The notes below the pieces were generated by a model. The model saw only the letters and a list, made by a program, of their open reading frames with translations, did not search any database and had not been told where the DNA came from. The position numbers were made by a program, and so were the translations under genes. From Marsupella aquatica (lineage: Eukaryota; Plantae; Marchantiophyta): a DNA stretch of 64,000 nucleotides. The stretch spans positions 8,796,148-8,860,147 of the forward strand of contig OZ316892.1 in NCBI GenBank assembly GCA_973895155.1. Reading direction: 5' to 3'. Positions 6,861 to 46,037 of the stretch are shown piece by piece. Position 1 is the stretch's first letter. Every line of letters begins with the position of its first letter.

Positions 6861-9091
6861 CGATTAAGAGATATCACAATCTCATCACCGTCACAAACTT
6901 AGCTGTTAAAAATTGATTTCTTTGATTACGTCGCCATCCCTTGTCCACAATGCTTGCTTCCCAGCTTGAATTGTTCGCATTCCTCTAGTCTTCAACTGAA
7001 GCTCACTCTGAACACAGGTTGACACTAAATGCAACCTCTATGTCAAAGAAACAATCGTTGGTCTCTCTCTCACACCATAGCTTTCTTAAATAAAACAACT
7101 ACAAATCGTTCATGTGAAGTGATGACTCGTTTGTTTTGTGTGTTCTTCCCATCGAATCGACAAGCGCTCTTTTGCCAATAGCTAAGTGTTATCCTCCAGT
7201 TTGTCTTGTGGCAGTAATGCTCAATGTAACTCACAAATGATCAATCATGAATGATAAAAACACGATTTCTCCAATGTGTAAGCAAAATCCGTCAGAAAAC
7301 TTAATTCCTCCATATTCAACCTTTCGTTGATAAATCTCCTCTATCTTTTGAGCATTTTCTTTTGTACGAGCACACACCAAGACCATCGGGAGACTCAAAA
7401 CCGTAGATTACCGCCTTGTTAAAAATTGATTTCACTTCATCAAACACACATTCCTTGGATGAACATGGGGGTCCACAGATTAATTGTCAGATTCCTTATT
7501 GATTTGAGACCCTGGTTGCCACAGTCATCAATCACTTCTCTGTAAGTCTCTGAAAATCTGACGATATGGATTACTGTATGCATGATCAGGTTAGTGCATG
7601 CCCTGGGCAATAACTTAATATTTTCATTTTTCAAATGATAGCGAAACTAGATAAAGAATACATCTCATTTGAAGCAATATAAGTATACAATGATTGATAT
7701 ATTTCATAATGCTTTAGAATATGCTTAACATGTGCATTGTAAAAAATCTCCAAAGTTTCATAACCATACATACAAGTTTTGTCTTGGTTATTGAAATTTC
7801 AATAACTACTGCATATATCTTTTGTGCTAGAGACAACTCATTACACCCTAACATTCCTCCCAACTTCATGAGTGGCCCACTAGAAAAACAATACTCTTGC
7901 TTCAAGTGGAGCGGGGTTTCAAGACAGACCCAGGTCTTTTCCTCGCTGTATGCTTGGGTCATTTACATATTGTAATGGGTGCAGTGACATTGATGAGTAC
8001 ATTATTTATGAAGCTGAAGTGGAGTTGTAAAGATTCATTTTCTCATTCATAAATATTTAAAAGCTAAAGGGGAATAAATTTTTGATGCTACTATACAACC
8101 CACATTTCATATTTTGTCTTGCTCTAACTTTTTGCTGTGTATTTTTATTGCAATGTGGCTTAACAAGGTGCATCATTAATTGCTCTGGGATGAGCTAACC
8201 TTGCTATAAGGGGAGTTCTTACAGGTTTTTCTAGCCAGCTGTTTTTTAATTCGATGACATCATGCTCACAAAGGGTATGACATCATGGAAGGGTATGACA
8301 TCATGGAATATTATCATACAAATCAGACTCTACTACATATGCACTTTACATCTTGCTTGGGATTTCTAAACAAACTAGCCCCAACTAGAGTACAATAAAA
8401 GTGTCAACAAAGTATATTCTCTATTCACATTTAATGAAATGATGAAAGTTGCAAGGGGCTTGGGAAAGCTTTCTAGCTATGGACACACCCTAGAGACTCT
8501 TTTTACACCAGTTCAACTACACTCCTCCACTCATTTCTCCACGGAATCCAGTTTTCTCAATTGCATTAGCTTGCTCTTGTTGAGGCGCATCAAATAGATA
8601 TCAAACACGCCACAAACGGAATCGTATCGACTTACTTATAGTCACATTAGGTTTCGATGTTTTTCTGTATTTTTTCTGCAACTTTCACCTTCCTTTCGAC
8701 TGTCATATCTTGGTTCATCTTTCACGGATTCCGCATTTCTCAAGTGTTTTGGATTGCTCTTCTCTATGAGCTTCAAATTGATCCCACGAGCAGTCCAATT
8801 GGACTCATATTGCCCTGATTGGACCTTGATTTGATTTCTCATTTTTTCTTCAATTTCACACGTACTCTCTCTCAATTAGGTTTCCTCCCCAATTTGAGGT
8901 GACGGTTTCCCTTGAACCACACCTGCCATTATAAAAGCCTCATTCCATGTCTCACTACTCACCATAAAAGGTGTAACACTCACACCTTTTGTGGAGTACT
9001 TGCCAAAAAAAAAGTTTTGCAGTCAGCACCTTTTGTGGAGCTCAAAACCCATTTCTGAACTTGTGGTCTTTACAATGAGAGCTACGGGTAA

Positions 9092-9449
9092 TGTCATGCC
9101 GAGGGACAGTGTCTCTTATGCACATCGACATGTCCCTTGCCTGCCCGCTAGGTATGTAGTTAGGGCTAGTGTACTACCTGAGTTAGCGACATGTTCTTGT
9201 AGCAAGTCTGGGCCGTTGTTGAAGCAAATGTGCTTGTTAGTGTGACGCCAGGACTTTGCTTGCTTAGGGCATGTCTTTCTTTGTGGGTTTTCAGTTCTTC
9301 TTGAATCACTGTTGACAGAGCTCAGACAGTGCTCGTCGGTTCCGTACACGGGATTCACACAGTGATTCGTTAGATACTCCCGGCTGATCTTGGCATCCCG
9401 CCGGTTTTTGATTCGATTTCAGTACGATTGTTTCTCTTACGCCTTTTAT
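9092..9449 (+). repeat. Direct repeat A1 (358 bp)
   Basis: Matches 18250-18607 with about 3 transitions by eye. Confidence 0.95.
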
Positions 9450-9461
9450 TCAAGAAGAACT
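9448..9461 (+). promoter_or_regulatory. Putative self-priming primer-binding site (Tf1/sushi-like)
   Basis: ATTCAAGAAGAACT is the exact reverse complement of AGTTCTTCTTGAAT at 9293-9306 inside repeat A and lies at the 3' edge of A1. Confidence 0.7.
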
Positions 9462-9929
9462 CTGTCGCCGGGTTAGCGGTGAAGGGAAGAAGATCGGAGA
9501 CGCTGTGCTTCTCAATTGCTCGAGACAGTTGACGCTTTTCCGCTGATGCCGGTGCAATTTCTATGGAAAAACATTGAGAGATGGGGTGGAAGTTATGGCT
9601 TTTGTGTATACACTTAAGTATATACACTTAAGTCAAACAGGCCCCCCCCCTCACTCTTTTCCTTCGCGCTTTGCTTTCAGGGTTTTCCATTTCCTGGCCA
9701 CAGTTGCCATCCTGCATCGGCTGCCGTGCGACAACCTCCGCATTGCCTCGGCCACCGTGCGACTGCTTCTCGACTACATAGGGCCTCGCGCCCGTTTTCT
9801 TTTCGCCCTTTGCTGCCATTTTTTGCCTTCGTCGCCTCGCCACTCCTTTCGCATTGGTGTGCAGGCTGTGCATAGGGCATCGTGCCTTTGCCTCGCCCAT
9901 TTTCCTTCCTTCTTTTCCTTACCGTTATC

Positions 9930-10385
9930 AGCAATTAAAGCACTTAGATGAGGGGGAAGTGAGCGCAAGGAAAGGAGAGGGCACGAGGCCCACCAGGAAG
10001 CATTAAAGCAGGAGAGGAGGGGGAGCGAGTGTGCAAGGAGAGGGCACGAGGCCCTATGCTGCAATTAAAGGAGGGGAGGGGAGCGAGTGTGCCAGGATAG
10101 GGCACAAGCCCCTATGTTGCATTAAAAGGAGGGGGAAGGGGAGTTCACATACGACTCCATTCTTTGGGAGTCCCCCTACAGGGCACGGAGCCCACTGTCA
10201 GCATTAAAGAAGGGGGGGAGGGAGAGTACATCGACTCCCTTCTGTGGGGAATACTGTCACCAGGGCACGAGGCCCAATTTCATTAAGGAGGGGAGGGGGA
10301 GCTCGTAGCTTCCCTTTGGAAGCTCTTAAGGTGGGACACGAAGCCCTATGGAGGGCTCATGCCATTAAGAGGGCCCGGTTTGGCC
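9930..10385 (+). repeat. G/purine-rich degenerate tandem repeat (~60-80 bp unit, ~7 copies) in the retroelement 5' UTR
   Basis: Units begin GCA(A)TTAAAG at ~9931, 10000, 10061, 10119, 10201, 10281 and 10361, followed by GAGGGGGA...GGGCACGAGGCCC. Confidence 0.75.
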
Positions 10386-10936
10386 CGGTTTCTTTCGCCT
10401 CGCCCCCTTTCCGCCTTGTAATCCGCCTCTCTCTTTTCTTTTCGGCAGTCGTCTTTCCTTCCGCCTCGCAATGACTTGCATAGGGCCTCCGCAGGCTGCC
10501 TGTGCATAGGGCGCCGTGCCCTGAGTGTGTTTACACACTCGGCCGATTCCCTTGTGCCGATTTTGCTGCCAACGCGCACCCGGTCTCTTTTCCATCGTGC
10601 TTGCTAGTTCCCGGGTCCACATTGGGCCCGATGTATACACTTAACCGGGCCCCATGTTTATACATTTGAAAGGGCCCATGTATACACTTAAGGGGGCCCC
10701 AGGTTTACGTTTTTAAGGGCCCATTTTTCCGGGTCAATCTGGCAAGCACAACACCGGTACAATTGGAGTTTTTAAGGGTCTTTTCTTTGCCGACGGTTTT
10801 CTATGTGTTTACACATTCGACACATTTCTGCCTCACATCGTTTGTTTCCTTTGTGGGTTTTATTTCCTAGCCTTGGGGCTGCCATTTCTTTTTCTTGTCA
10901 GTTTCTTTCCCATTGGCACCCAGGTGAGCATGCAGC

Positions 10937-12512
10937 ATGTCAGCCGACAAGCCAGGAGGTAGCAGCACATCGCCACCGACACCCAGGTACCATTTACGGA
11001 GTGATCCACGACCATTGGTGCCAATTTCATTGGAGTCTCGGCAATTTCGACGACGTCCACAGACAGTAGCAACACCCACACCACACAATCCTTCTGCTCC
11101 ATTTGGCGGTCGCTTCACCACTACTCCCAAGCCTGCTATCACTTCATTGCCATTTACCCCTTCTGCATCCGTGGTTGTTCTTGCTTCACCGACATACAGC
11201 ATGGACGCCAGCCACTCATCTGGCCGCATTGAACGCTTCAGCGGGCGGCCAGGCACTGTTTCTTTGCGTGAGTTCAAATCCACTTTCTACACTGTCGTTT
11301 GCCCATGCTGCTGCTCCTGCCACTTCCCCTCCTACTCCAGTTCCCACCACTGCACCAGTTACTCCCACTCTCTTGGCACAGGCTACATCAGGCATTTCTC
11401 CCACCGTTGATTCTCCTGCCTTTGCTGATCCAGTGGCTGAGTTTTTCCAGGTTCTTGAATTGGAATTCCCCATCAAGAGTGCTGACAAAATCATGCAGTT
11501 GGCCACCTTTGTGAGGCAACGCGATGAAACCTTGAAGATGATGTATTGCTGGCTTCTCAAGCTGAAGAAGGACACCCAGAGCATCACTGACCTGGAAGCT
11601 GCTCATCGCTATCTTCGCGCATTGGAGGGCACACCAGCTCTCCGTTCGCAAGTATTGCAACAAGTATTCTCAGAGTTTGGAGACAGCTACACCCTACTCA
11701 ATGTCTATGACACTGCTGAGAAACTTGAGTTGGCCCATGCACATTATGAGGCCAGTATTGCACATCCACCGCGATCCAGGTACCAGGCTGCTGCCCCTAC
11801 ACTGGCCACCCCTTCCCGTGTGCCACAGTATGGTTCCAAGACCAAGCCAGCCCATGCTGCTTTCATGCTGCCATCTTGCAACTACTATGGTAATCCCAAT
11901 CACAAGGCTAATGACTGTGATATTGTTGCAGAGGACCTGTCTTGTGATTTTTGCGGAAAAGTGGGTCACTTGGAGGCAGTTTGTTTTGCCAAATTCCTAG
12001 AGAGGAAGCAGCTACGACAGCAGGCCCCTCCTCCTGCTCCTGCTTCCACTCCCCCACCAGCTAGGAGGGCTCCTACAGTAACAACTGCTCCTCCTTCCAG
12101 TGGCAAAGCATCCAGTGCCAACAAACCGCCCAAGCAGCAACAGAAGCAACCAGCTCAGAAGGAGGCTCACAACGCACAGGCAACTCAACTCCAGTCTCTG
12201 ACTCATGAGGTTGAGTCCCTACGTGCCCAACTTGCCAACATCAAAGGCAAGTCAACTGCCTCTGCTGGTCCTTCTCAACCAGCTGGTCACGTGCAACCCA
12301 TCCTTGGCCCAGGCACCACTGACAGTTCAGCACCTCTACCCCGCTCTTTCTATGGCTTGCCATTTGATGCTCATATGGGTGAGTGTGTGTTGTACTCTGC
12401 TCCACAGCCTGGCCTTACAGCAGAATTTTCAGATTCATTCTGCCCTTCCTATTTTGCTTACCAGCAGGCCAGTGCTGCCTCCCGTATTTCTCCCACGCGC
12501 CGCATTGTATAG
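10937..12512 (+). pseudogene. Gag of the Gypsy element (frameshift/deletion near 11300)
   Basis: IERFSGRPGTVSLREFK (ORF 10937). Two zinc knuckles in ORF 11103..12512: CNYYGNPNHKANDC (degenerate) and CDFCGKVGHLEAVC. Confidence 0.75.
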
Positions 12513-13149
12513 GCTGATGGTCTTGCTGCTGGTCCTCTAACTAGAGCCAGGGGAGCTCGGGCTGTCATGCCCCAATCCTTTCAGCCACTCACACTTGCTG
12601 AAGAGCGCACCTTGTTGGCGAGGGGGGAGGGAGCTGCAGCTACATCCATTCCACCACCAGGTGCTGCTGACATTTCACAGGGAGTTGTTTCTCCTGAGCT
12701 ACTTGAGCATTTCACCTCCGGTATGGCACAAAGGATTCTTACAACTCCACTTTTTAGTTGCCATGATTTACAGTTGGATGCTAGAGCTGTCATCAGAGCG
12801 CTAGAGGGCTCACTGCATTCTTCATCAGCCCCTGTGACACCGGTTTTTGAGGTCCAATCTCATGTACATACTGGATCTTCTTCTTCTCCATTACATGCTT
12901 CCACTGGTTTGGCTATCCCAGTACCAATTTCCAGTGGTAGAGATGACAGTATTGCTGCAGATTGTGTGACCAGAGCTACACTGGATTCTGGTCATGCTGC
13001 TCCATCTTTCCTGACTATGCTGTTGAATGGAAAGACCGTGGACACTAACTCCCTTCACAAGGTACCTCATCATTTGCCAAAAGTGGTGCCTAGCGACAGG
13101 ACTTCAGTTTCCACCACCATTGCCATTGTTGACAACAGGAATTCAGCAA

Positions 13150-13480
13150 TCAAGTTGGAGGGTCACACTCCTCAGGTGGTCATGCTAGACACAAGCGCTC
13201 AACCAGTGATATTGGGCATTCAGTTTGCCAAGAAGATGGGACTGTTGACTGATCATTTACAGCAATCCAGGTGGCACATTCGGATTGCTAGTGGCACTGT
13301 GGAGGATGTGCTGGGTGAGAGTTCTACTTTACTCACTCTCACTTTTAATGGAGGTACAGATCAGGAACTGCATTTCCCAGTCAGATGTTTGGTTACCAAT
13401 GCCACTACGTATGATGTGCTCATTGGCCAGGAGGCTTTGTTCCCACCAGGTTTTACCATTGACAACGAGCATGCATACTA
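13150..13480 (+). pseudogene. Retroviral-type aspartic protease domain
   Basis: VMLDTSAQP (DTG/DSG motif, altered to DTS), flap IRIASG and YDVLIGQE in ORF 12567..13769. Confidence 0.75.
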
Positions 13481-13829
13481 CAGAGTTGATTGGCATACGG
13501 ATGGCTCACACTTGGGATACATTCCACTTGATATGCATGGTGCCCATACCCCTATGGCTCACCACTGTGTGTTGAAAGTAGTGCACATAGCTACCTATGT
13601 CAACCACCCATTGCAGGATTGGATTGAGGAGGATGATGATGAGGTGGCTACTGCACATGCTGCAGCACTTTCCAGCAACGTGGATCATCAACCAGAGGTG
13701 GTGCAACGGCTCCAAGCAGCCCATGGACCTTTGGTGGCTGCATTGCACAAATTTGAGGACCTTGGGTAGCACAATGGACAACCAATAGCCCCAATCTTGA
13801 GCGCACCAGTTACATGGACTCCTCCTTCA

Positions 13830-14780
13830 GATGGCCTTACATTGCTTGAGCTTTTTGGTGGCATTTCTACAGGCCTGGAAGCTCTCCTAAAGTCTGGCAT
13901 GGTGGTGAAGCAGTACATCTATGTGGATATTGATCCAGGTGCAAGGCAAGTGGCTGAATCCCGTCTGCTGGAAGTTTCAGAGCGATTTCCCCAGCAGTTT
14001 CCACATAGTGCATGGACGTCTGCATTTTCTTTCTTTCCTCTAGATATCCAGCTTGTCCAGCACCGGCACTTAACCCTTCTTAGCTCCCTTGATTTGATCA
14101 TAGCTGGTTGGGAATGCCAAGGGTTTTCAGCTGCTGGTCACGGTGCTGGACTGCATGATTCTCGTTCTGGCCTTTTCACAGCATTGGTTTAGATTCTCAC
14201 CTGGGCTCAATCCCTTTATCCTGCTGTTGGTTATATCATTGAGAATACTCCATCTCAGTTTGACCAGCGTCCACAGGTCAAAGAGGATTTCAGTGTGGTC
14301 CAGCACTACTTGGGACCACCCCTTCTCATTGATGCAGTGCACTGTGGTTCTTATGCACATCGTCTTCGTAACTTTTGGACTAACCTTGCACCACCTTCCT
14401 TGCTGGAGATGGCTCTTCACCACACATCCAGGGACACTAACCTCACAGTGGACCAGATTTTGGATCCTGACAATTCTTGCCAACCAGTTACACGGCAAGA
14501 GCCAGCACCTTGGTATCCAGCCAATACCATTGGACAACCCCGTGCTGCTTGGCCTACATTTGTGTCCTTTCCAGGTGCACATGCTTTTCAGGGTGATGGT
14601 CCTGGTCTGGTTTATCGACATTCTACCGGTACATGGGATGAACCTAGTCCTGAGGAGAGAGAACGGGCTATGGGCTTCCAACCCGGTACTACAGGTCACA
14701 CCAAAATCACTAGGCTGGCCAGGAATGCTTTACTTGGCAGGGTAATGGATCTCAATGCTCTCACTTGGCTTCTGGTCACT
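13830..14780 (+). pseudogene. C5 cytosine DNA methyltransferase domain within the Pol polyprotein (one in-frame TAG at 14190)
   Basis: Motifs in canonical order: I LELFGGISTG; II YVDID; III LDI; IV IIAGWECQGFSAAG (Cys 14115); V DSRSGLF; VI YIIENTP (14241, read through the stop); VIII AHRLRNFWTN; IX ERERAMGF; X LLGRVMD. Confidence 0.88.
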
Positions 14781-15149
14781 TGCATCCTTTTTCAGATGTA
14801 CATTCCTCCAGCATTAGGAGCTCCAGCCCTACCACTCCACAGTGCTACTGCATGGCATCCAGACCAGGTGCACTTACCTCTGTCCAACACTCACCACTTC
14901 AGTCCAAGTGTTGGGGGGGAGGAGGTCCCTTGTAATGCGGCTGACATTATTTCTGAGTTTCATGGTGTGGACCACTTCAGATCAGTAGGTACAACAGGCC
15001 TTGGAGAGGCCTCATCACCTTATCAGCAGCATGCTAGCAGCTTGGACAGTGGAGAGGCTGGCACTTCTGGCTCTTCAAGCACGAGTACATCAGGTCCTAT
15101 TCCTAGTGTTGCCAACTACACATTTATCATGGGCAACCACCTGAGTAAA

Positions 15150-16480
15150 AGACAGAAGGACCAGCTGCTGAATTTGCTCCTCAAGCATGAGAATGTGTTT
15201 GCTTTCTCTATGAAGGACTTGGGTAAGTGCAAGACTATGCAGTTCTCCATTGAGTTGGCTGATGAAACACCTATCTTCAGGCGGAGACACCGTTTGAGTA
15301 AGCATGAGTGGCAGCTGGTGGATGAGAGGTGCCAAGAGCTCTATGAAGCTGGTCTTATTCAGCCATCTACATCAGATTTTGCAGCAGCTACAGTGATGCC
15401 AGCAAAGAAGGATTCCAGTGGATTGTGGACAGAGAAGCGCATGTGTGGGGACTACAGGCCATTGAACCTGGTCACACCCCAGGACAGGTACCCCATGCCG
15501 CGGCCAGAGGAGCTATTTGACAGTATTGGAGACTCAGACATCTTCACTCTTGTGGATCTAAGGCAAGGCTTCAACCAGATTTTGTTGCTTGCAAAGGATC
15601 GCAAGAAAACAGCTTTCCATGGTAGTAACCAACTATGGGAGTGGTTGGTGATGCCATTTGGCTTGAAGAATGCGCCCATATTCTTTCAAAGAGTCATGGA
15701 CCAGGTTCTTCAAGGTGCTGAGTTTCTGAAATGCTACATTGATGATGTGTTGGTCCACAGCAAAGGATTTGACCAGCATCTACTTGACCTTGAGGAGCTA
15801 TTCATGAGGCTTAAGAAGGTGAACCTAAAGATACACCCCAAGAAGTGTGAATTTGCTGTTAGATCAGTAGTATATCTTGGGCATCGCATTCTTCCAAATG
15901 GAACCATGGCTCACTGGGCCAAGGTGGTATCCATCTTCGAAATGCCCACTCCTACCAATGTTCACACTTTGAGGAGTTTTATTGGGTTGTGCAATTACTA
16001 CCGGATCTACATCAAAGATTTCAGTACCATTGCACACCCATTGTATGCTTTGTTGAAAAAGAATGTGACTTGGACATGGAGTACAGATGCTGAGGCAGCA
16101 TTTGCACACAGATTGGAGTGCCCTTGGGATTGGTGCCATTTTGGGCCAGCATGATGAGGAAGGTAAAGAGTACGTCATTGCCTATGCATCCAGGAGCAAC
16201 AATCAGGCAGAGAGTCATTATTCTTCTTATGAGGGTGAATGCCTTGCTGTTGTGTGGGCTGTCATACATTACAGGCCCTACCTCTATGGGACCAGGTTTG
16301 TTCTCTACACCGACCACCAGCCCTTGAAGTGGTTGATGACCAACGACAAGCTTACTGGCAAGCTTGCTCGTTGGGCGCTCATACTCAGGAGTATGATTTT
16401 GAGGTAATTCATAGGCCTGGTGTGACACATCAAAATGCTGACACTATGTCCCGCAGCCCTTTGATTGCCTCTGATGATTC
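15150..16480 (+). pseudogene. Gypsy reverse transcriptase + RNase H (deletion near 16105, frameshift near 16387)
   Basis: KRMCGDYRPLN, DLRQGFNQI, VMPFGLKNAP, YIDD (15735-15746), YLGH; RNase H HTDWS..GIGAIL, YEGECLAVVWA, YTDHQPL, NADTMSR. Confidence 0.95.
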
Positions 16481-16550
16481 TTCAGATGCATGGCAGGATT
16501 TTGACTAGGTTTCCATCCTGCCTACATTTCATGCATCTACCTATCTTGCT

Positions 16551-17830
16551 TTGCTGCCATGCTACGTTGTTGACCAACCTGTGGTAGACATATGGGAGGA
16601 CAACAACACTCTGAGATTTTTGCAGCATGGGGAGTACCCCATACATGTTATTGCTGCCCAAAGAGACCGAATTCAGCAAAGGTCCAAGCGTTACTTGTGG
16701 AAGGGAGATCATCTCGTGCGCTGCTTGCCAGACAGGGAAGTGGTGGTTCCACCCATTCATGAGAGGGTTGGCCTGATCCGTAAGGTACATTCTGAGCTTG
16801 GTCATTTTGGCGTTAAGAGGACTTACAGCCTCTTGGTCCCTCATTATCATTGGAGAGGCATGCATGGCCAGGTTCGAGATGTTATTGCCCGGTGTGAACA
16901 GTGTGATAGGGTGAGGACTTCTTTCACATCTCGGCAACCCACACTTCATCCACTCCCTATTCAGGGCATGTTTTATCGCTGGTCATGTGATTTGGCTGGA
17001 GAATTACCCCTCACGTCTCGGGGTAATCTCTACATCATGATCATGATAGAGCATTTCTCCAAGTGGATAGAACTTGTGGCATTGCCAGATAAGACCTCCC
17101 GTAGCACCAGCCAAGCATTCCTGCAACAAGTTCTCAGCCGCTTTGGAGCTTGTGCAGAATGTCTCACTGACCAGGGCTCAGAGTTTAGAGGAGAGTTCCA
17201 GGAGCTGCTTGATCAGGCCCTCATTGATCATCGCCGGACATCATGAGATCACCCACAGGCAGATGGCTTGGCAGAGCGCATGGTTCAGACATGCAAGAAG
17301 GGCCTCCGGAAGATCTGCCTCACCAAAAACAAGGAGGATTGGGACCTGGCCTTACCCTACATTGCCATGGGGTATAGGATGTCCAGACATGCATCACTGT
17401 CTAACTTTTCTCCCTACTTGTTGTTTGGTCGTCACCCAATTCCACCTTCTGCTATTGCTGCTCACATGTTTCAGGTGGTGGACTTGGATTCAGTTGTGAC
17501 TTGGTTTGATGTGATCTTTGAGAGGGCTGCCCTATTCAGGAGGGTTATGCCCATGGCCATGGAGAATTTGGCCATTGCACAGCACAGGGACACACTGCGT
17601 TATGCACACACACGAGGGGGCACTTTTCAGCCCAAGGTCAGGAAGTTTGATGTGGGAGATTTTGTGTACTTGCAGCGGCAAGCTAACGACACCCTGGACA
17701 CCTCTACCAGTCGTACTATTCTCAGGGTTAAAGCTATTTGACCGTTTGGAGTGCTAGAGTTACAAGGGGCAGATGGGCGCACAATTGCTGACAATGCCAA
17801 GAATTGCGCCCCTTGTCATCTGCCTAACCT
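16551..17830 (+). pseudogene. DDE integrase (in-frame stops at 17244 and 17739)
   Basis: HHCC zinc motif HSELGHFG...CEQC; catalytic residues in WSCDLAG, LTDQGSEF and GLAERMV. Confidence 0.92.
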
Positions 17831-17879
17831 AGATCCCACCATTGTGACTTCTACTTGGATTCCACCTGTGGACTACCCT

Positions 17880-18032
17880 TGCAAGGTGTGTTTGCGAATT
17901 GATGATGCTGACCAGATGCTGCTGTGTGACAATTGCAATGGAGGGTACCATCTTTTTTGCCTTTGGCCTGAACTTACCCAGGTGCCAGAAGGGTTATGGT
18001 TTTGCCCTTCTTGTGCTCCACGTGCTACCTGA
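17880..18032 (+). other. PHD finger at the integrase C-terminus
   Basis: C4HC3 pattern CKVC...LLCDNCNGGYHLFCL...WFCPSC, same reading frame as the integrase, followed by the terminal stop. Confidence 0.9.
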
Positions 18033-18071
18033 ATTTTCTTCAGCCCTCCTTTTGGCTGTGGTCTGGGGGGG

Positions 18072-18247
18072 ATACAGAGGTTTACACCTCCACTACGTAC
18101 ATACCACTTCATTTGCTTTTTCTTGGCACTTATGAATGTGATTGGACTTTTTCTATGCATGTTGGTTGCTAGCAGCTTGCACATATGCCTTGTCGGTGAC
18201 TTGTATGTTTTCGATACACTATGGCTACGACACTATATGTCATGACA
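18072..18247 (+). repeat. Direct repeat B1 (176 bp), preceded by a G7 PPT-like tract (18065-18071)
   Basis: Matches 18608-18783 with about 4 transitions; ends in CA. Confidence 0.95.
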
Positions 18248-18249
18248 GC

Positions 18250-18607
18250 TGTCATGCCGAGGGACAGTGCCTCTTATGCACATCGACATGTCCCTCGCCT
18301 GCCCGCTAGGTATGTAGTTAGGGCTAGTGTACTACCTGAGTTAGCGACATGTTCTTGTAGCAAGTCTGGGCCGTTGTTGAAGCAAATGTGCTTGTTAGTG
18401 TGACGCCAGGACTTTGCTTGCTTAGGGCATGTCTTTCTTTGTGGGTTTTCAGTTCTTCTTGAATCACTGTTGACAGAGCTCAGACAGTGCTCGTCGGTTC
18501 CGTACACGGGATTCACACAGTGATTCGTTAGATGCTCCCGGCTGATCTTGGCATCCCGCCGGTTTTTGATTCGATTTCAGTACGATTGTTTCTCTTACGC
18601 CTTTTAT
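18250..18607 (+). repeat. Direct repeat A2 (358 bp)
   Basis: Copy of 9092-9449; begins TG. Confidence 0.95.
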
Positions 18608-18783
18608 ATACAGAGGTTTACACCTCCACTACGTACATACCACTTCATTTGCTTTTTCTTGGCACTTGTGAATGTGATTGGACTTTTTCTATGCATGTTG
18701 GTTGCTAGCAGCTTGCACATATGCCTTGCCGGTGACTTGTATGTTTTCGATACACTATGGCTACGATACTATATGTCACGACA
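18608..18783 (+). repeat. Direct repeat B2 (176 bp)
   Basis: Copy of 18072-18247; ends CA, followed by TSD GTAA. Confidence 0.95.
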
Positions 18784-20116
18784 GTAACCCGTAGCCCTTT
18801 ATAGGGGCAGGTGTGGTTTGATCAGCTTTGGAGCATTCTTGTATCCGATTGGTGGTTGTCTTTCTTCTTCACCTCTGGCAGGGTGGCTTTTTGCCAAGTT
18901 TCGTGGACCAGATTGCATTCCACCATCTTTGGGAGCTGAAGCAGCATGCTCAAATCAGCAGGCGGTTTTTACTCGCACCAAATCCTCCACGGCCACATCA
19001 ACAAGTGCTTCAGCTTTGTCCCCTACTGTGCCTGCACGGGCTCAACAGTTTCCTAGGCTCGCGGTGGCGCCGTTTCTCGGATTGATGCGGTGGGCTCTCT
19101 CCATAGCCTTCCCTTTCTTTTCACATGTCTTGGTTGGGCCTTTTGTTACTTCTTGATGCGCTTTTGCTTTTAGTGGGTTGCGGCCTGTCATGTCTACGTT
19201 GAGAGTGTTGGCGCGGGGCAAACGCCAAGCCTCACCACACACTTCTCCCCCCTCCTCCCCCCCGCCTTGTGGTCGCCTTCGTGTTTGCTCTTCTTCACTG
19301 GATCTCTCTCATCTTCGTGATGACCCCATGCCCGATGCTCTACTAGTCCCCCCAGTCTACTGCCCATCCCATCGTCGCCCGGGCTCCTCTCCCCACCCCC
19401 CAGCATCATCCTCCGGCCTCATCATCCACGTCTGTTCCACCCCCACCTCCTGTCCAGTCTTTCCCAGCTCCCTCCCCAGACGAGCGTCCCCTACATACTT
19501 GCCCTGATTGTGGATGGGTTGGCATCTCCCTCCCTCATCATCGCGGGCGGGGCCGGTGCCAACGTCGCCAACACGCACAATCCGAGCCTCAGCCCCCTCT
19601 TGACCCTGTTAGCTTTGCCCTCCCTTCTTGAAGGGCTTCTGAGCAGGCATGGAGTTGGGTTCGCACTCTAGACCCCCTTCCAGCCTACCATCCAGGGTAC
19701 ATTAGATCTCGCCTCTATAACCACATCCCACTAGCGTTGCGCCCTTTAGTTTGGTCATCCTTGTTGTAACTCTTGCAACTTATCTTGGTGCACTATAGAG
19801 GTCTCTTATTGGTCTTTACTCATGCTTTTCCGCAGTGGACTCTTACCCTCCCTTGTCATGGTGGTTGCGTGGGTCACCATGAGACTGCCTTTCGTATCCA
19901 TCGTTTTCTGTAGGGAGATTGGGAACAGCTCCAGGAAGAGTACTTTCTTAGAGCCCGTTCCTTTACCGCCCGAGCTTTGTCTGACCCAACTTGCCACTCT
20001 TGTTAGATATTGCTCTAGTCTTGTGACTCATGAGCTAACTATAGTTAGGCTAACTCAGGTTAGGACTTAGCTAATGTTAGCGGTAGTGCTGTTGTGTATA
20101 TAGCCAAGGCTGATGC

Positions 20117-20448
20117 TGTTGAACTAAGACGTCATTCGCAACGACCATACAACCATGACTCATTCCATGCACACGTAGTCGACACAATCTCTACGTGGTT
20201 CACCTCTTCTCCAAGGCTACGTCCACACGAACACTCAAGCTTTACTTCAAGAGTAGACGAACACACATGCTCTCTCTCTTCCTCCTATTGTTCTGTTACA
20301 ATGAGTAAGCACCACCCACCAGCGGCTTACACTAGCCCTGGTATATACAAGGTCACACACGACTAATCTAACCTCAGCTAAGATCCTAACTGTGGTTAGC
20401 CTAAGTGCCGTAACCTATGAGTCACAAGACTAAGAGCAATCCTTAACA
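20117..20448 (-). mobile_element. Solo LTR of a related Copia family inserted in reverse orientation into the 5' LTR
   Basis: TG...CA ends and TSD GATGC at 20112-20116 and 20449-20453. Absent from the 3' LTR (681 vs 344 bp = 332+5). Its reverse complement aligns with the host LTR. Confidence 0.9.
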
Positions 20449-22188
20449 GATGCCAGACCCTGGTGGAACTTAGGCTCATTGTTACAGAGCTAGTTGAGAG
20501 ATAGGGAGAGCTTGTGCTGTGGATGCTTGGTATGGCCGGTCGGTCTAGAGTGCAGTAAAGCTCTTGTGTGTTCCCGTGGACGTAGCCTCATGTGGAGGTG
20601 AACCACGTATCTTTCTGTGTCGACTATTGCGCGTTGGATGGTTCATGGGCTTGCCGTTGCGAATGTCGTCTATGCTCAACATGTGGTATCAGAGCATGCC
20701 TGGGAGGTGACGAGCTTTTTTCGTGACAGGTTTTTCCAACGTTCATTGTCGATGGTAATTCAGAGTTTCGTCGCATGAAACTTGATTGTGTGTGGCTGAG
20801 CGGATAGGTTAGTGAGAGGGCATTCTAACTGTGGTTAGAGCTCGCTGATGGTATTCGTGGTGCGGAGGAATTGAAGTTTGCGTCGTTCAGGGTTTATTCA
20901 TGTTTGACGGTATTTTGGGGGAGAAACCAGAGATCATTTCTTCAACGGTGTGAGCTGTGCGGTGTGCGGGGCGTCGCATGTGATAGTTCAAGTTGAAGGT
21001 TGGAGCGTGCTGGTCATTTTGGTATCTAGTTTGCTGACGTTTGCGAAACGAGTGTGTCGTGACGAGTGAAGGAGGCGTTCTGGTTTTTTGACAAGCTATG
21101 GTGCTTGTTTTTCCCTGAACCGGATTACTCGTCGTAACGCTTGACTCGGAGGAAGAAACGCGAAGTGCTGAGGCTCAACGGAGAGATCGTGGCGAGACGG
21201 TCGTTTTGAGTCCGGGATTGGCACTTGGCGCGGAGTGAAGGCGACGCAACAGAAGTTCTTTCTCTGGTGGAGCTTCAAACATGCCGGTGCAATTCGGAAA
21301 CATTTTCATGTCGGCGGTCATCACTTTTCTCATTGGAAACCAAAGCGGAGGTGGCTTAGGTTTGTAACACGGCCTTTGTGTCATTTTGGGCACATTTTTA
21401 AAGTTAGTTTAGGGCATTTTTTGCCCCAATACGGCCCCAATACCCAACAAACCAGGTTCGCCATACGCCCCGGCGCGCACACCGGCCTCCCACACCCCTT
21501 TAAGCGCGAAAACGTGCTTTTTTGGGCCCAAATACGGCCAAAAACGCCCATATACGGCCCAAAAACGCGAGAATATGCGCGTTTTGACCCCTTTAAACCC
21601 GTTTTTTCACGTTTTTTGCTGTTTATACGCGATTCTGGCCGCAAATACGTGCGCCTTTGCCAGGGGCTTTAAGACCCCTTTAGAGTGTTTTTTTTCAATT
21701 TTTTTTCTGTCCTCCTCCTCATTGGTTGTGCCTCATCCCGGGCCCTATGACCCTCCGTTTTAACCGCTCCAACAGGGGGAACGGCCCCCTGTGAGCCCTG
21801 GTGGACTGTGCGGGAATATTCCCAAAAAAACAGAGAGCTGTTTTTCGGCCGTCACACAAAGATTCCGTCCGCCGCACAGTAACTTTTTTGGTTCTTTTTT
21901 GGTGAGGACGTTGCCACTGGAGTTAGCAACGCGGCGCACCGATCACATCGCGATTCTGACAACAGGTTGTACTTGGTATTTCGGTTATTCTCCGAGGTGG
22001 TCAAAACGGGGGAGTTTCCCAAGGTTTTACCCACCCCGACCGAAATTTGAATAACTTTTCCGTCGAATTTCGATTTTGATTTCGGATTTCAGTATTGGAC
22101 TCCTAGCTTCGTGGGCTTCGCGGCGGTGTTGAGTTTTGAGTTTTATGAGAAGTTTCAAAAAAAGACGTTTTTTTCGTGATTGTTTCAT

Positions 22189-25100
22189 ATGAGTGACTCG
22201 GAGGATACTGGAAGAATTGGCGTTGGTGGAGCTTCAGGATCGCGACGGTCAGACAGAGAGTCTGAGGAGGAGCTGCTACCATTTGAGGAGGAACTTATAA
22301 CACCGGTACGATCACCGGTGCGACATGCAGTGGAGGAAGCTGTGTTACTACCAGAGCTGTCGGTAGTAGGGAAGAAGAGGGAGATGGCTAGATTTGGAGG
22401 AGTGAAGTTTGAGGTGGAGAAGTACGATGGTCGTACTGATTACTTGCTCTGGGAGAAGCAAGTGAAGGGTGTTCTACGGGCCATGGGCTTAGCTCATCTG
22501 CTTTCATCGCGAGAGCAGTATGATGGAGAGGAGGAGATTTTAGTGAAGCAATGGAGACAGGAGCAGGTGATTGTTGTCAATGCAATGATGCTATATCTCA
22601 AGCCGCACATCATCAAGCAGCTGGATGATTATGCGGATTGCGCATCACTGTTCAAGGCTCTAAGAGAGAAGTATTACCGGGAAGATGCGTCAGACCGGCT
22701 ATACAAGAAGTCTCTCTTGATGAGCCTCAGGCTCAAGGAAGGGAGCAAGATGCAGGATCACCTGGATGAGTTTGACAGTCTAGCGGTTGATCTGTCAAAC
22801 TTGGGAAAAGGAGTTGAAGATGAGGATAAGGCCTTGCTTCTGCTAAGCTCCTTACCGCCGTCATATCAGGGCTTGAAACAGGTGCTCTTGTACAGAGATC
22901 TGAAGTCCATTTCGTATAATGAGGTGGTAAGCTCTTTACTATCTGATGATGCTCAGAAGAAGCTGGGTCAATCACAGACAACATCTTTTTCTAGCACTGC
23001 GCTCAATATGAACAGGGGAAGAGCAACGCAGCGCACGAATGGGCAGAACAGGTTTAGATCTACATCACGGAGGACATCTAAATCCAGAGGAAAATCACAA
23101 GAGAGGAAGCCTCTTGCATGTTGGAATTGTGGCAAGCCAGGCCACATGAAAAGGGATTGTCGAGTAAAGGTCCCTACTGCCTCTGCTAACGTAGCATCGA
23201 GCTCGCATGAGGTAGATTTACTCGATGATGATGACATATTGTGATGTCAAGGTTATGCTCTCAACGTAGTGTCAAATCCAGGTAGTGATGACTGGATTCT
23301 AGATAGTGCATGTACTTTTCATATTTGCTCTAGAAGAGATTGTTTCAGTTCTTACACGGTTTCCAACGGGTCAGTGTTGATGGGAAATGGAATCCCATGT
23401 CAAGTTGTTGGACTTGGATCTGTAAGATTTCAGATGTTTGATGGTGCTGTGAGAACATTGAGGAATGTGAGACATATTTCCAGCATGATGAAAAATCTCA
23501 TTTCACTTGGAGTTTTAGAGGCAAATGGCCATCAGTGGAGTTCTGCTAATGGTGTCCTTCAGGTTTCAACTGGTACTAAAGTTGTATTGAAGGGAAAGAG
23601 ACATTGCAATCTATACGTTATGGAGGGCAGTGTAGTCTATGATGAAGCCAATGTAACCTTATCTCATGAGGAGACGGCCCGGCTATGGCACTTTCGTTTG
23701 GGCCACATGAGTGAAAAAGGTTTGGTTATTCTTCAGAAGAAAGGATTATTTTCTAATTTGCAATCTTGTAAGTTGGAATTTTGTGAGCACTGTGTGCACA
23801 GGAAACGCTTCGGAGTTGGAACTCACACCAGCAAGGAGGTACTTGAGTATGTACATAGTGATGTGTGGGGTCCCGCCCCTACTCCCTCACATTCTGGACG
23901 GTTATACTATGTCACGTTCATTGACGATTACTCAAGGTATGTGTGGATATACTTTCTACACAATAAGTCTGATGTTTTTGCCACTTTTAAGGAGTGGAAA
24001 GCCCAAGTTGAAAATCAGACTGGTAATAAGGTGAGATATCTTCGATAGGATAACGGCGGTGAATACAGTTCCGGTGAATTTGGAACGTATTGTAAGGAGC
24101 AGGGGATTACCCGCCATCTCACAACAAGCTATACTCCTCAGCAGAATGGTGTTTCTGAGAGACTCAACAGAACACTATTGGAGCGCTCGAGGAGTACGTT
24201 AAGTCAATCATGCTTACCACATGAGTTTTGGGCTGAAGCTGTCAACATTGCAGCTTATTTGGTAAATTTTACTCCATCCAGTTCTATTGGATTCAAGACG
24301 CCATTTGAAATGAGGTACGGGCGTCCAGCAGATTACTCACATCTGAGGATTTTTGGATGTGATGCTTATGTGCTTACACCTTCCCAGCTTCGATCCAAGC
24401 TAGAGTCCAAGTCGAAGAAGTGCATTTTCCTTGGTTATCAGAAAGGTGTGAAGGGTTATAGGTTATGGGATCCAGTAACCTGTAAGCTAATTGTCAGTAG
24501 AGATGTGTCCTTTAATGAATCCAGATCATCAAAGGAGGGGGAGAGTTCTCAGGACTCCCATACTGACAAGGGGAAATCTCCCATCCCGGACCGGGTTGAG
24601 GGGGAGATTAGTCATGATGCAGTTCATGACAGGAGAGATGGAGAAGCTCTGGGCTTGGAGCTGGTTCCTGTGATGGAACAAGAGGAGCAAATTGTTGCTG
24701 GGGTACCTCAAATTCAACCAGCAGCAGCAACAGATCAGCCTGAGTCATCTACTAGAAGAACTTCCAGTCGTTCTACTAAAGCTCCTACCAGGTATGGTCA
24801 ATGGGCAGACTCATCTAAGCTAGATGATATTGACATTGCACCTGATGAAGATGATATGGCTTTGATCTTGGAAGAAGGAGAGCCTTCTTCGTATAGTGAG
24901 GCTTGTGCTTCAGAGCAGAAGCATGAGTGGAATGCAACAATGCAGAGGGAGTTGCAATCTTTGAGTGACAACAAGACATGGGAGCTGGTGGAGCTTCCAA
25001 GAGGTCAACAAGTGGTGGACAGCAAGTGGATTTACAAGTTGAAGGACAGTCCTTCAGAGGGTGGAGATAAGATCTACAAGGCAAGGCTTGTTGCCAAGGG

Positions 25101-26427
25101 GTTCACTCAGGAGAAAGGAGTGGATTACAATGAGGTCTTTTCACCGGTGGCTAAGTATTCCACAATTCGGATCTTGTGTCAGCTTGTTGTGTTTTTTAAT
25201 CTGGTGATGGATCAGATGGATGTTGTTACTGCTTTTCTCTATGGCAACTTGGAAGAGATGATCTTCATGAGACAGTCACTAGGCTTTATGAAGAAGGGCC
25301 AAGAGAACTTAGTTTGCAGATTGCTCAAATCCTTGTATGGATTGAAGCAGTCTCCCAGACAGTGGAATAAGCGGTTTGATGATTTCATGCTTGCTCAAGG
25401 TTTTACAAGGATGGTGTATGATCCTTGTATGTATACGAAATCAGTCAAGAATGATGTATTTGGTTTCATCATTCTAGTGATCTATGTGGATGACATGCTA
25501 ATTGTGGCTAAAGATCAATCTGAGGTTGACAGTCTCAAGGCGAAATTGAGCGCTGAATTCAGGATGAAGGATCTTGGTAAGGCCAAGAGGATCTTAGGGA
25601 TGGAGATTTTTAGGAACTCTGAGACTGGACAGTTGTGCTTGAGTCAAGGCCAGTATGCGAGGAAAGTACTTGTACGATTCAACATGGAGAACTGTAAGCC
25701 AGTGAGTATTCCTTTAGCTTCACATTTCAAGTTATCATCGGCTTTCTCTCCTACAGATGCTGTGGAGAAAGGTCTGATGGCTAAGATTCCTTATGAGAAG
25801 GCAGTAGGCAGTCTGATGTATTTGATGACTTGTACTAGGCCTGACTTGGCCCTAGCGATGGGCAAGGTTAGCAGATTCATGTCAAATCCAGGGAAGGTAC
25901 ATTGGGAAGCTGTGAAATGGATTCTCAGGTATGTGAAGGGAACACAGGACTATGGATTACTATTTGATAACAGATCAAATAGAACGTTAGTTGGCTATGT
26001 AGATTCTGACTATGAAGGCTGTTTGGATACAAGGAGATCTATAGCTGGGTTTGTATACACTCTTGGAGAGGATGTATCAGTTGGAAATCCACCTTGCAGA
26101 AGTGCATATCTCAGTCTACTACAGAAGCAGAGTATGTTGCAGCAGCAAAAGCAGCAAAGGAAGCAATTTGGTTGGACAAGTTGATCGCGAAGATGGGTTT
26201 AGAGCATGGAAAAATGACTCTAAACTATGAGTGCTCTTCACTTGGCTGCTAACCAGGTGATGGATAGCAGGGTGAAGCACATTGATATCAGGTACCATTT
26301 TATCACGCAAGCAGTGTCTGATAAAACTTTTGAGCTAGACAAGATTGATGGAAAGCTCAATCCCGCTAATGCCTTTACCAAAGTGATTCCTTTGGAGAGT
26401 TTCTCAAGACACCGTGCTACTTTGTAG
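22189..26427 (+). pseudogene. Copia gag-pol (stops at 23242 and 24046; frameshift near 26068)
   Basis: EKYDG..DYLLW; CWNCGKPGHMKRDC; WILDSAC; LWHFRLGH; VHSDVWGP; YKARLVAKG; YVDDML; HIDIRYHF. Confidence 0.93.
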
Positions 26428-28692
26428 GTTTTGCAGTTATAGTGCAAGTAGAGTTATTTAGCAATGTGTGACTATTTGTATATGGATTACTCATTCTTGT
26501 TTGGCTACGGCTTAGTTCTAGTTAACCCTTAGTTAATCCTTGTGGTTTTTAGGGGGAGACCTGGTTTGGTGATTGTCTAGAACTTCCCGCTGAGGATTCC
26601 ATATGATAGCATTTAGTTCATTCCCCAAGACAAGAGTCAAGGGGGAGTTTGTTAGATATTGCTCTAGTCTTGTGACTCATGAGCTAACTACAGTTAGGCT
26701 AACTCAGGTTAGGACTTAGCTAATGTTAGCGGTAGTGCTGTTGTGTATATAGCCAGGGCTGATGCCAGACCCTGGTGGAACTTAGGCTCATTGTTATGGA
26801 GCTAGTTGAGAGATAGGGAGAGCTTGTGCTGTGGATGCTTGGTATGGCCGGTCGGCCTAGAGTGCAGTAAAACTCTTGTGTGTTCCCGTGGACGTAGCCT
26901 CATGTGGAGGTGAACCACGTATCTCTCTGTGTCGACTATTGTGCGTTGGATGGTTCATGGGCTTGCCGTTGCGAATGTCGTCTATGCTCAACAACTCTCA
27001 TCCCCCAGAGCATAGACGCCTTCGCCGCTCTTGTCATTTAGTCCAGGCTGGTGAATATCGTCGTGCTGTCCAGGCCCTTTCTCCCACCACACCCGCCCCT
27101 CCTGGTGAGGTCACCTTCTCGGCCCTTCAGGATCTCCATCCGCAGCCATATGATCAGCTGCCTTTGTTTGTGGAGGATTTTGAGCTTGAGGAGGATCTTC
27201 AGTTTAGTAGGGACCACTTCACCTATGTCTTCCTCCATTCCCCGCGTTGTGCGGCTGGTGGCCCCTCTGGCTATGTCTTTGAGCATTTTTGTGATTTATT
27301 CTCCCCTGAGGATCCCCAATCTGGTTTTCCAGTTTTCTTTTCCTTTTGCCAGTGTCTTGCAGCCGGCCGTTTACCTCCTCCCGTCTCTCAACTTTTGAGT
27401 GCTTCTCGTTTATTGGCCATGGCTAAGTCCTCACCGGGTGTTCGGCCCATCGCTATTGGAGAGGTTTTTTTTCGTCTTGTGTCTCTCACACTTTCATTGC
27501 AATATCGCTCTGCACTTTCAGATCATCTTTCTCCACATCAGTTTGCAGTGGGCATTCCTGGCGGTTATGAGACAGTTATTGTGGGTATTCGTGCTACCTT
27601 GGACTTCCACCCTGATTGGGTTGTCCTCCAGGTTGATGTCTCTAACGCTTTCAACACAGTTTCTCTGGCAGTCATTTTTCGTGCTTTGAGGGCGGCGGAT
27701 CCAGACATCCAGTCCCTTATCCCCTTTGTCCATTGTTTTTATAGACTCGAGGCCTCGCTCTTCTATAGTCATCACACGTCTACAGTATTGTATACCACTC
27801 TTTCTTCTACAGAAGGTACACGTCAGGGTGACCCTTTGGGTGGGCCTCTTTTTGCCATTGGTCCCCCTGCCACGGTTATTTCTGCCCTCGCCACTCTTTC
27901 CACCCATTTGACGGGCCTCGGTTTACAGGTTCAGCCTATGAAGAGTCGTGCCTGGAGTCCAGCTGGGTTACCCTCTGAACTTGTGCTTCCCCCTGGATTC
28001 TTACGTCCAACCTACGGCCTTCGGGTCCTTGGCTCCCAGTCGGTACCGGCTTCTTTTGCTCATCTTTCATCGCTGACGCTCTACAGGCAGCCTTGGAAAG
28101 AAGTTGCTAGAACATAAACCAAGACTCCACAAGGAAGAAATCGATGACACAAACTTAAGTCGTTGGGCCGGAGCGAGCGAAGGTGCCAAAACACAAACCC
28201 AAAGTCGATGACCCAAAGTTTATCGGGCCAAAGCGCGTGACAAAATGATAGAGTATTGGTTTATGTTCTACCAAACTTGGGCTGGAGCGGGCAACAACAT
28301 AGGGGACTGGGACAGGCAGTGTACGGAACCCCGAGAAAGTGGGGAACATTAACTTGACCTAGATTTAAGATTTAACTCGGGATGTAAATATATAGGGTTG
28401 AGACGCCCTATTACATCCCACTTGGGACCTCTCCCTCTCGGTTCGGGGCTATTTTCTGCTCGGTTTTGGTCCTCGTTTTCTGCTCATTTCTGCACATTTC
28501 CGCACATTTTTCCCGGCTCGTTTTGGTGCCTCTGGTGCTCGTTTTCTGCTCTGTTTTGGTGCTCGGTTGAGACTCGTGCTCGTGCTCGGCTGTGCTCTCA
28601 GATTTTTGGGCTCTTGGGTGTCTCGCCACGGAGAAGGTTGTCGATGGTTCTTCTTCTGTTCTGAAATTGAGCGGCCGAGGCTGGCTTCTGAG

Positions 28693-42600: not shown

Positions 42601-42834
42601 CCCAAGATTTCCGTGGCTGATGAAGTTTCTATGCTCCAGCATGCAAGAGAGGACGGTGCTGTGTATGTCATGGGGAGGGTGGACATTAGGGTCAGTAAGA
42701 CCACCAAGTTTATTACGCGTATCATTGTGGGTAAGTTCTACAGATTTCTTAATGCTAACTGCAGATCAGAGGTGTCAACTATGGATATTCCCTACGACAA
42801 TTACCTAGAGATTGGCCTATTGTACGACATTTGA
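36617..42834 (+). CDS. KUP/HAK/KT potassium transporter (8 exons: ~36617-37198, 38226-38448, 39071-39325, 39619-39669, 40118-40378, 40590-40642, 41097-41467, 41942-42834)
   Basis: [80 protein letters not shown]; GT-AG boundaries. Exon 1 less certain. Confidence 0.93.
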
Positions 42835-44640: not shown

Positions 44641-46037
44641 CTACTCGTAAAGCCATTTCTCGGTGTCCTTCTTGTAAGAGAAGAGCTCCTCTGGCTTGAA
44701 CCAAAGCTTGATCTCGGCCGCAGCTGTCTCTGGTCCATCGCTGCCGTGGACAATGTTCCTGAAATCAGCCCCCCAAAGTAATCCGTCAGACGACGACGAC
44801 ACTATCACTTCTACTTCGTGAGCTGGAAACCTAAACACAAACCTCCACTTACAGCTTGTTAAGCTCACGAGAATCGTCCTCTATTTCAGATGACAACCGC
44901 AATTACTTATATTTCACAATATTACGCTCAGAAAGAGTCAAGGGAGGAGACATCACTACTTTAGCCTTCTCAGCCGGTACTGTGGGAACTGCGTTACTAA
45001 GGGATTAGAAACGCGGTCAAGGACATTGATTGCTTTTGCATTCACATATACAGCGGAGGAGTAGTCAGGCGTCCGTCCAATCAAGCTCTCACCTTCCGGT
45101 TTGGATGGCATAGTCTCCTCGGATGGTACCGGGCTCAGATAATAGAGGGTTAGTAACACCGATAATCTTCCTTCCGTACTTGATTACACCCTCACCTTCC
45201 CAAACCTGCACAATCAGCCAATAACTAAGACATTGCTGGAACAGAGGATTCTCAGGAGCCATACACCAGTCGGGAAGCCTAAGAGCAGAAGAGATTATAA
45301 AAATGAAACAGAGTCCAACCAAAGACAGGACGAACCTCTCCCCCCAACCTGTACAAATCACACGAGATAATTCACAGTGCAAACTAATCTATAAACAGAG
45401 CTCGACCTGCAGAAGGGATATAAAAGTAAAACAGCGTCCGATAGAAACACTCTACGACAGACCTCCCCCCTCCCCCCTCCCCCTAACCTCTACAATTCAC
45501 ACAAGATATATCATTCACAGTGCAAACTTTTCTTCAAATTGAGAGCTCGCCCTCGCTGCCAATCCTCCTCTTACAAATCACCAAATCCTACTGTGCAGCT
45601 ACGGCCAGCCTCAAACAATCGGGGACAGTAGTATGGTGCTGGAAAGAAACCATTTTGGCGGGTTCCACTCACCATCGCAAAGACTGGGCCAGAGCTGAGA
45701 AAGTCAGTCAGGCCATTGAAGAAAGGCTTCGCTTTAAGGTCATCGTAGTGCTTGGCGGCAAACTCCTTGGTGGGATGCACCATCTTGGCACCTACCAGCT
45801 TGAACCCCTTCCTCTCATATCGAGAGATGATGTCCGCAATCTGTGCAGATCGAGCGTAAGTACAGAATGAGTCACTCCGACGACGTCCGCCCAAATCGGT
45901 AAGTAAGACAACAGAAACTACCAGGAGAGACACTTAACTACGAATGGATGAGCGAACAAAGAAGGTAGCACGGAGAAGTACAGTACCAGGCCTCTCTGGA
46001 TGCCGTCGGGCTTGATGGCGATGAAAGTACGCTCCAT
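44641..46037 (-). CDS. NDPK: Nucleoside diphosphate kinase, NDPK3-type catalytic domain (exons ~46037-45987, 45840-45673, 45207-45095, 44759-44641)
   Basis: [51 protein letters not shown] (catalytic His). Upstream exon ends at donor 46923. Confidence 0.93.

Follow-up and report, generated by a model that had tools for sequence, protein, structure and literature searches.

A Gypsy element with A-internal-B-A-B repeats in Marsupella aquatica and its probable integration from an att site inside one long terminal repeat

How does a Gypsy retrotransposon come to carry a repeat A at its left end and the repeats B, A and B, in that order, at its right? The question is raised by positions 9092 to 18783 of a 64,000-nucleotide stretch from the liverwort Marsupella aquatica (the window; GenBank assembly GCA_973895155.1, contig OZ316892.1, positions 8,796,148 to 8,860,147 of the forward strand), where the order is A1 - internal region - B1 - GC - A2 - B2. 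The copies A1 (9092..9449) and A2 (18250..18607) are 358 bp each and differ by 3 mismatches, B1 (18072..18247) and B2 (18608..18783) are 176 bp each and differ by 4, and all seven differences are transitions; the GC stands at 18248-18249. The outer ends of the element are TG and CA, and a 4-bp target-site duplication, GTAA, borders them at 9088..9091 and 18784..18787. An earlier note on this DNA had read the element in the same way, DDE integrase included, and both the coordinates and the Pfam domains bear this out. All features of the element are given on the plus strand, except for the palindromic att site, which has no strand.

Layout of the element and its relatives

The A-B-A-B layout of the window is not an assembly artefact, because the joint between A's end and B's start is present in contigs of 4 of 4 runs (7, 7, 2 and 3 contigs) and because the flank of the element is a high-copy repeat, whose uninterrupted form spans the target in other contigs and has a single copy of the four bases (25 and 30 contigs). 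In run X4, unrelated DNA lies 5' of A's start (8 contigs, agreement 0.46) and 3' of B's end (7 contigs, 0.49); the primer-binding site (PBS) adjoins A's end in runs X3 and X5, and the G-tract lies 5' of B in run X5. The B-GC-A joint is not among the matches listed in the contig comparison of the window's family, and its presence is suggested indirectly by 10 and 12 contigs that bear B2's letter yet sit on B1's end.

The layout is also the norm of the family. The census was taken in a related family (63-76% amino-acid identity), with 80 loci kept of 513 confirmed metagenome-contig stretches found through their reverse transcriptase (RT), and identical insertions were merged before the 5' and 3' ends were counted; the counts below belong to this family unless another is named. 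All 31 distinct 5' ends read flank, then A, then PBS, while the 39 distinct 3' ends comprise 22 with tract-B-A-B, 14 with tract-B, 2 with tract-B-A and 1 with tract-A. In the copies with both ends (n = 18, 13 with B-A-B and 5 with B only), a 4-bp duplication with at most one mismatch is found 15 times, 8 of these being perfect (mismatched pairs, 4.2%), and the signal is absent at 3, 5 and 6 bp. The earlier note had predicted this family-wide order with its 4-bp duplications, and had named conventional AB...AB long terminal repeats (LTRs) as the observation that would speak against it; the 5' ends carry A only, in 31 of 31.

The same 3' end, tract-B-GC-A-B-flank, recurs in a third family (locus L082, 54% identity). 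Of the 15 loci in the scan that gave L082, two were read, L082 itself and L081; the latter was used for motifs only, as its contig has a 127-nt end overlap that I read as a collapsed repeat. The Gypsy contigs of L081 and L082 sit in the record of a cyanobacterial genome assembly, likely as eukaryotic contamination.

Solo A-B units with perfect 4-bp duplications also occur (L057:13795-14252 and L022:17716-18195), one of them nested in reverse inside a full element. These, together with the A-internal-B copies (14/39), had been foreseen in the earlier note; both forms exist, but I rejected them as tests of circle integration, because host recombination between B1 and B2 or between A1 and A2 yields identical forms. 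The mirror arrangement, A-B-GC-A-internal-B, was looked for in the related family only: none of the 13 full copies that contain a duplicated unit has it (p = 1.2e-4 for an expected share of one half), nor does any of the 31 distinct 5' ends. Target specificity, considered because the window's site is a near-palindrome, was rejected for the related family, as its 18 duplications share no sequence.

Ends of the copied DNA and the A/B junction

Directly 3' of A1 stand 12 nucleotides (9450..9461) that are the exact reverse complement of 9293..9304 inside A, the predicted self-primer and first 12 nt of the transcript; the PBS is thus complementary to a stretch of the element's own LTR, as self-priming requires. 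A tRNA primer was rejected, since the site does not start with TGG and has a better match inside the element. The earlier note had the position of a PBS-like site after A right, and had not named it as a self-priming match. In the related family the match is present with at most 2 mismatches in 23 of 31 distinct 5' ends (control 12-mers, 0 of 155) at a nearly fixed distance from A's end, and PBS and primer differ from those of the window's family at two paired positions, that is, by compensating changes, while L081 of the third family has an unrelated 13-nt primer/PBS pair. The pairing is therefore conserved in two other families in other letters.

To judge from the position of the primer, A would be the downstream part of the LTR of the complementary DNA (cDNA), with part of U3, R and U5, and B1 the upstream part of U3. 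Seven G directly 5' of B1 (18065..18071) form the predicted polypurine tract, which is flush with B in 36 of the 38 distinct 3' ends that have B. With the PBS after A and the G-tract before B, the cDNA would thus have its right end at A's end, where A2 stops, and its left end at B's start, as the earlier note had placed them, and by the standard scheme it would read B-GC-A-internal-B-GC-A, from a transcript start that is predicted, not mapped. These ends differ among the families and carry no TG or CA.

What is conserved in three families while the cDNA ends differ is the CA-GC-TG core of a palindrome. In the window it forms an intact internal attachment (att) site of 16 bp (18241..18256), whose 2-bp spacer is the GC between B1 and A2. 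By best fit, 19 of 24 spacers are 2 bp long; in a fixed register the remaining 5 read as 2 bp as well. The internal att site of the earlier note is supported by this conservation, and it is likely that integrase cuts the palindrome inside one LTR, and not the ends of the copied DNA.

The joint of A2 with B2 (18607..18608), the predicted join of the two cDNA ends, is flush in the window copy. Among the census insertions it is flush in 8 of 22, in contrast to the templated junctions, which are flush in 29 of 31 (A/PBS, Fisher p = 1e-5) and 36 of 38 (tract/B, p = 2e-6), each compared with A/B. The variants have gained a single base, which in three insertions is the first of the PBS, or have lost 2-3 bases, or more, up to the 149 bases missing from L035, whose duplication is kept. 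Three variants of the junction are present in the window's family as well, one base longer and two bases shorter among them. The joined ends postulated in the earlier note are thus found in the four runs and in the census alike, and, as read from these sequences, the A/B junction is remade for each insertion. B2 is not a separately inherited part, because B1 and B2 diverge (0.122) as A1 and A2 do (0.130; 12 copies, Wilcoxon p = 0.38; L035, with a B2 of only 27 bp, excluded), and because the B copies of these 12 do not group by slot.

In two copies, L028 and L031, A runs to its exact end and is joined there to inverted internal sequence of the same element. L031 contains in addition a B stub that has lost 15 bases; its start is joined to the interior and its att end faces host DNA, and 646 bp are lost between the breakpoints. 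Free, joinable ends at A's end and B's start would be expected to leave such joins. A contig of run X1 joins the internal site 14883 to B's start at 18072 with two letters between, and resembles a truncated body joined to a B stub.

A proposed route of integration and its alternatives

I consider it probable that integrase cuts the palindromic CA-GC-TG in the left LTR of the cDNA, and that the cDNA ends are rejoined by end joining, giving A-internal-B-GC-A-B. By analogy with Tf1, transcription would begin near 9293 and the 5' end of the RNA would serve as its own primer at the PBS 3' of A; the G-tract would prime the plus strand, giving a cDNA with ends that lack TG and CA. If the palindrome is then cut in a staggered fashion, 3' of CA on each strand, a single step would produce two ends in which CA-3'OH is recessed behind a 2-nt 5' overhang, and the 2-bp spacer, the loss of this spacer and the 4-bp duplication would all be explained. 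Ends of this kind would be shaped like processed retroviral ends, and tetramers of HIV-1 integrase are reported to cut a palindromic LTR-LTR junction internally in vitro (PMC1905944).

The pattern seen is that the left att site alone is used. Its simplest cause would be that the left LTR is double-stranded right after the second jump, long before the right LTR, which becomes so only after another 8.6 kb of plus strand has been made. Integrase would then be committed to the left site, holding the A end together with the 176-bp B stub, which would become B2. That A's end and B's start are joined imprecisely and once per insertion is likewise a pattern, for which end joining would be the cause. 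The chances are about even that joining precedes strand transfer, on a circle committed to one site, or follows it, at a chromosome break between A2 and B2; in the latter case, annealing of the two B copies at the break could produce the single B in about one third of the 3' ends. Since A1 of the product would retain some 200 bp 5' of the primer, and A2 would supply a 3' R, further replication would be possible.

More tentatively, and with the odds rather against it, one may suppose that a whole clade of green-lineage Gypsy elements has uncoupled its cDNA ends from its att sites, that integrase forms its complex on the palindrome inherited in the left LTR, and that a two-piece cDNA, the body and the 176-bp stub, integrates and leaves the A/B chromosome break to be closed by the host. 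If this is true, every insertion passes through an obligatory double-strand break, whose failed or alternative repair would give rise to A-internal-B copies and internal inversions.

Of the alternatives, a jump during reverse transcription survives best, unlikely as I take it to be. The plus-strand 3' end would move from A's end to the left B as a template and copy it, and integrase would cut the resulting branch at the left att site, which means that an internal att site is required here too. Such a jump yields the same left/right asymmetry, and 4 of 22 junctions lose exactly the shared AT, which fits annealing over 2 nt. However, the two separate joins and the 646-bp loss in L031 are impossible by one jump, the loss of 149 B bases in L035 resembles resection, and the ends of the third family have no shared AT.

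Still less probable is the scheme of the earlier note, in which integrase opens a completed, symmetric 2-LTR circle at one or the other of its internal att sites before inserting it. It explains the junction, the lost GC and the 4-bp duplication, and integrase cleavage of 2-LTR junctions has been reported for HIV-1 (PMC1905944) and foamy virus (PMC1180852). Because the two att sites of such a circle are identical, however, one half of the products should be mirror copies, and the counts of 0/13 full copies and 0/31 5' ends speak against the symmetric circle.

Integration of the DIRS/PAT/Ngaro type, by a tyrosine recombinase that is encoded elsewhere and acts on the B/A junction of a circle, is very improbable: the order A1-B1-A2-B2 is also that of Ngaro, PAT-like, VIPER and TATE elements (PMC6681497), but neither the element nor the near-intact L081 contains such a recombinase, the DDE integrase is conserved, TG...CA ends stand in unrelated flanks with 4-bp duplications, and Pol is closest to Ty3 (E = 1e-94). 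Finally, a single deletion or duplication event in a conventional A-B LTR, which A2-B2 by itself resembles with its TG...CA ends, or an assembly error, is refuted by the counts, as the layout occurs in 22 distinct insertions of the related family and in the third family, the joint is in 4/4 runs and no 5' end carries B.

Several observations also weigh against a cut in the left LTR followed by end joining. All evidence comes from inserted copies, the cDNA, the circle, the RNA and the enzyme being deduced from sequence only, and the census is one of a related family in short-read metagenome contigs, with old copies (~12% repeat divergence). In only 3 of 24 cases is the nearest neighbour of a B copy the other B of its own element, and rare shared states number 38 with a shuffle maximum of 35, a weak signal. 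One of the 18 two-ended copies (L065) has no duplication and two further ones match poorly, and the fold of 9293-9500 does not have the primer:PBS duplex as its minimum-energy structure (z -0.58). In run X3, three contigs with loose ends 5' of B's start agree only at 0.61, and in some of them the start of B may be joined to other DNA. The breakpoints of an inversion in L008 lie elsewhere, which shows that genomic inversions also occur. Mirror copies, moreover, could have been partly lost through recombination between A copies or through assembly collapse; the B-A-B ends, which equal the mirror's in size, assembled well in the census.

Proteins, surroundings and known systems

Its proteins, not the layout of its LTRs, identify the element as Gypsy. 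Its Pfam domains follow the order aspartyl protease, C-5 DNA methylase, RT, RNase H, integrase (H2C2, rve) and PHD, in which protease - RT - RNase H - integrase is the order of Ty3/Gypsy, and the DDE integrase, the TG...CA outer ends and the 4-bp duplication match what defines that group (4-6 bp duplication), whereas two identical LTRs bounded by PBS and polypurine tract are missing. A gag-like frame with a Cys/His-rich stretch (11070..12512), which has no Pfam family above the cut-off and is presumed to be gag from its position, is followed by the aspartyl protease region (12513..13769; PF13975, E = 3.5e-5, below the curated cut-off), by the N-terminal part of the methylase (13770..14192; PF00145, E = 4.6e-6), which continues past a stop in the next frame segment, and by the remainder of the methylase region with the RT (14193..16154; PF00078, E = 1.4e-28). 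RNase H lies in a shifted frame (16069..16407; PF17917, E = 4.3e-36), and then come the integrase with H2C2 finger and core (16509..17741; PF17921, PF00665), with D 16989, D 17169 and E 17274 and one stop inside, and the C-terminal PHD finger (17742..18032; PF00628, E = 3.6e-12). Because stops and frameshifts interrupt these frames, the window copy is, to judge by its reading frames, dead or decayed. In L081, otherwise open, an in-frame stop (L081:3489-3491) parts the gag-protease-methylase frame from that of RT, RNase H, integrase and PHD, and may stand for read-through or for mutation.

The catalytic D, D and E are kept in 19, 19 and 18 of 19 relatives (one gap). From the second D to E the spacing is 34 residues (17169-17276 in the window, likewise in the relatives P0015 and L081), the canonical spacing being 35. 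No tyrosine recombinase was found in the 24 frames scanned, those of the window element and of L081 included. The best solved-structure match of P0015 is Ty3 Gag-Pol (E = 1.2e-94), and for the methylase of another relative, P0016, DNMT3 chains are the sole structure matches, and weak ones (E = 2e-4); an Atlas look-up gave a methylase cluster that is mostly from Streptophyta. Among the matches listed, the nearest that carries a name is a protein of Calypogeia fissa, a liverwort (83% over half of the query), followed by Closterium. The integrase-PHD clade extends to Haematococcus and Volvox at ~48%, where it is known from proteins alone, and two scans of viral contigs returned no relative.

The element sits inside a short high-copy repeat that resembles a miniature inverted-repeat transposable element (MITE; 8915-9091 and 18788-18819), the terminal inverted repeats of which are 26 bp long and imperfect (8915-8940 and 18793-18818, 22/26 alike), and the target of the element is the centre of a 19-bp near-palindrome. 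An extra joint of 9056 to 9092 on opposite strands, in runs X1 and X4, suggests a second insertion in the same MITE-like repeat family. At 20000-26993 lies an ordinary Copia-type element (integrase before RT, from its frames) with LTRs of ~350 bp; a related LTR, 67% identical and inverted, breaks up the 5' one at 20117-20448. Further long frames are located at 26861-28117 (+), 41914-42834 (+) and 52008-53885 (-), the last one of 625 amino acids; I take the first to be an RT-like remnant and the second to be a membrane-transporter-like exon. An old dispersed repeat pair, 44580-45844 and 62415-63391 (~80% identity), stands 17.5-17.8 kb apart.

The earlier note knew of no such arrangement in a Gypsy element, but it had already been published. 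For KnitGypsy-Dnmt3 from Klebsormidium nitens (de Mendoza et al. 2018, PMC5890265), the legend of Fig. 4c describes DIRS-like repeats with Gypsy domains, and that of Fig. 1e gives the DIRS order as A-coding-B-A-B. Shared with the element of the window are a Gypsy Pol with a Dnmt3-like methylase inside and the A-coding-B-A-B repeats, a likeness by published description, no Klebsormidium being among the named matches listed. In its accessible parts, the text of that paper does not give an att site, a duplication, a priming site or a mechanism, and does not name a PHD. A 2026 preprint (10.64898/2026.05.21.726589) mentions streptophyte Gypsy-DNMT3 in passing in the part available, and a literature search outside subscription journals, Repbase Reports and theses found no mechanism for an A-B-A-B Gypsy layout in the texts accessible to it. 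The layout itself has been noted once in print; for no LTR element did the search find a description of the route proposed here.

Tf1/Sushi elements and plant Tcn1, as described in the accessible parts of PMC7175516 and PMC6317226, likewise have a PBS that is complementary to their own LTR (11 nt in Tf1, 12-13 nt here). Unlike the present element they have identical TG...CA LTRs, and Tcn1 belongs to the chromovirus clade, whereas the Pol described here ends in PHD. A 2019 survey of plant LTR elements required two TG...CA LTRs of at least 95% similarity, according to the available text (PMC6317226), and would likely miss or mis-delimit the A-B-A-B layout; LTR finders that demand two identical LTRs would likely mis-annotate a large class of bryophyte and algal elements. 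PAT, Ngaro, VIPER and TATE elements have A1 at the 5' end, B1-A2-B2 at the 3' end and solo A-B units (SIRE), going by the part of PMC6681497 at hand, but they encode a tyrosine recombinase in place of the DDE integrase, TG...CA ends and 4-bp duplications found here, which would make the common layout convergent. Troyka, considered as well, is unrelated to the A-B-A-B Gypsy layout as far as its accessible description goes.

In the textbook account, integrase acts on ends made by reverse transcription and circles lead nowhere, and the use of an internal LTR junction by integrase as a real route has been a matter of argument in retroviruses for decades. Retroviral 2-LTR junction cleavage, as given in the accessible parts of PMC1905944, PMC1180852 and PMC4372172, likewise has a DDE integrase cutting a palindromic head-to-head pair of att sites internally. 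There, the palindrome is made by the joining of cDNA ends and the reaction is a side route; here, U3 carries the palindrome by inheritance, the ends that are joined do not serve as att sites, and the internal route seems to be the family's only one. The missing mirror form would tie the reaction to the order of cDNA synthesis, and the family could be used, as a natural system that makes clear predictions, to study how a DDE integrase cleaves internally. A lead in this direction, from its description only, is Gypsy-7a_cRei of Chlamydomonas reinhardtii, a Gypsy element with PHD whose right LTR ends in 8 bp that are missing from the left one (PMC9940879, in the part available), which is what a very short B would give. 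As this element is reported in the same source to be active in laboratory Chlamydomonas strains, with 86 new insertions, PHD-Gypsy elements there may allow a direct test.

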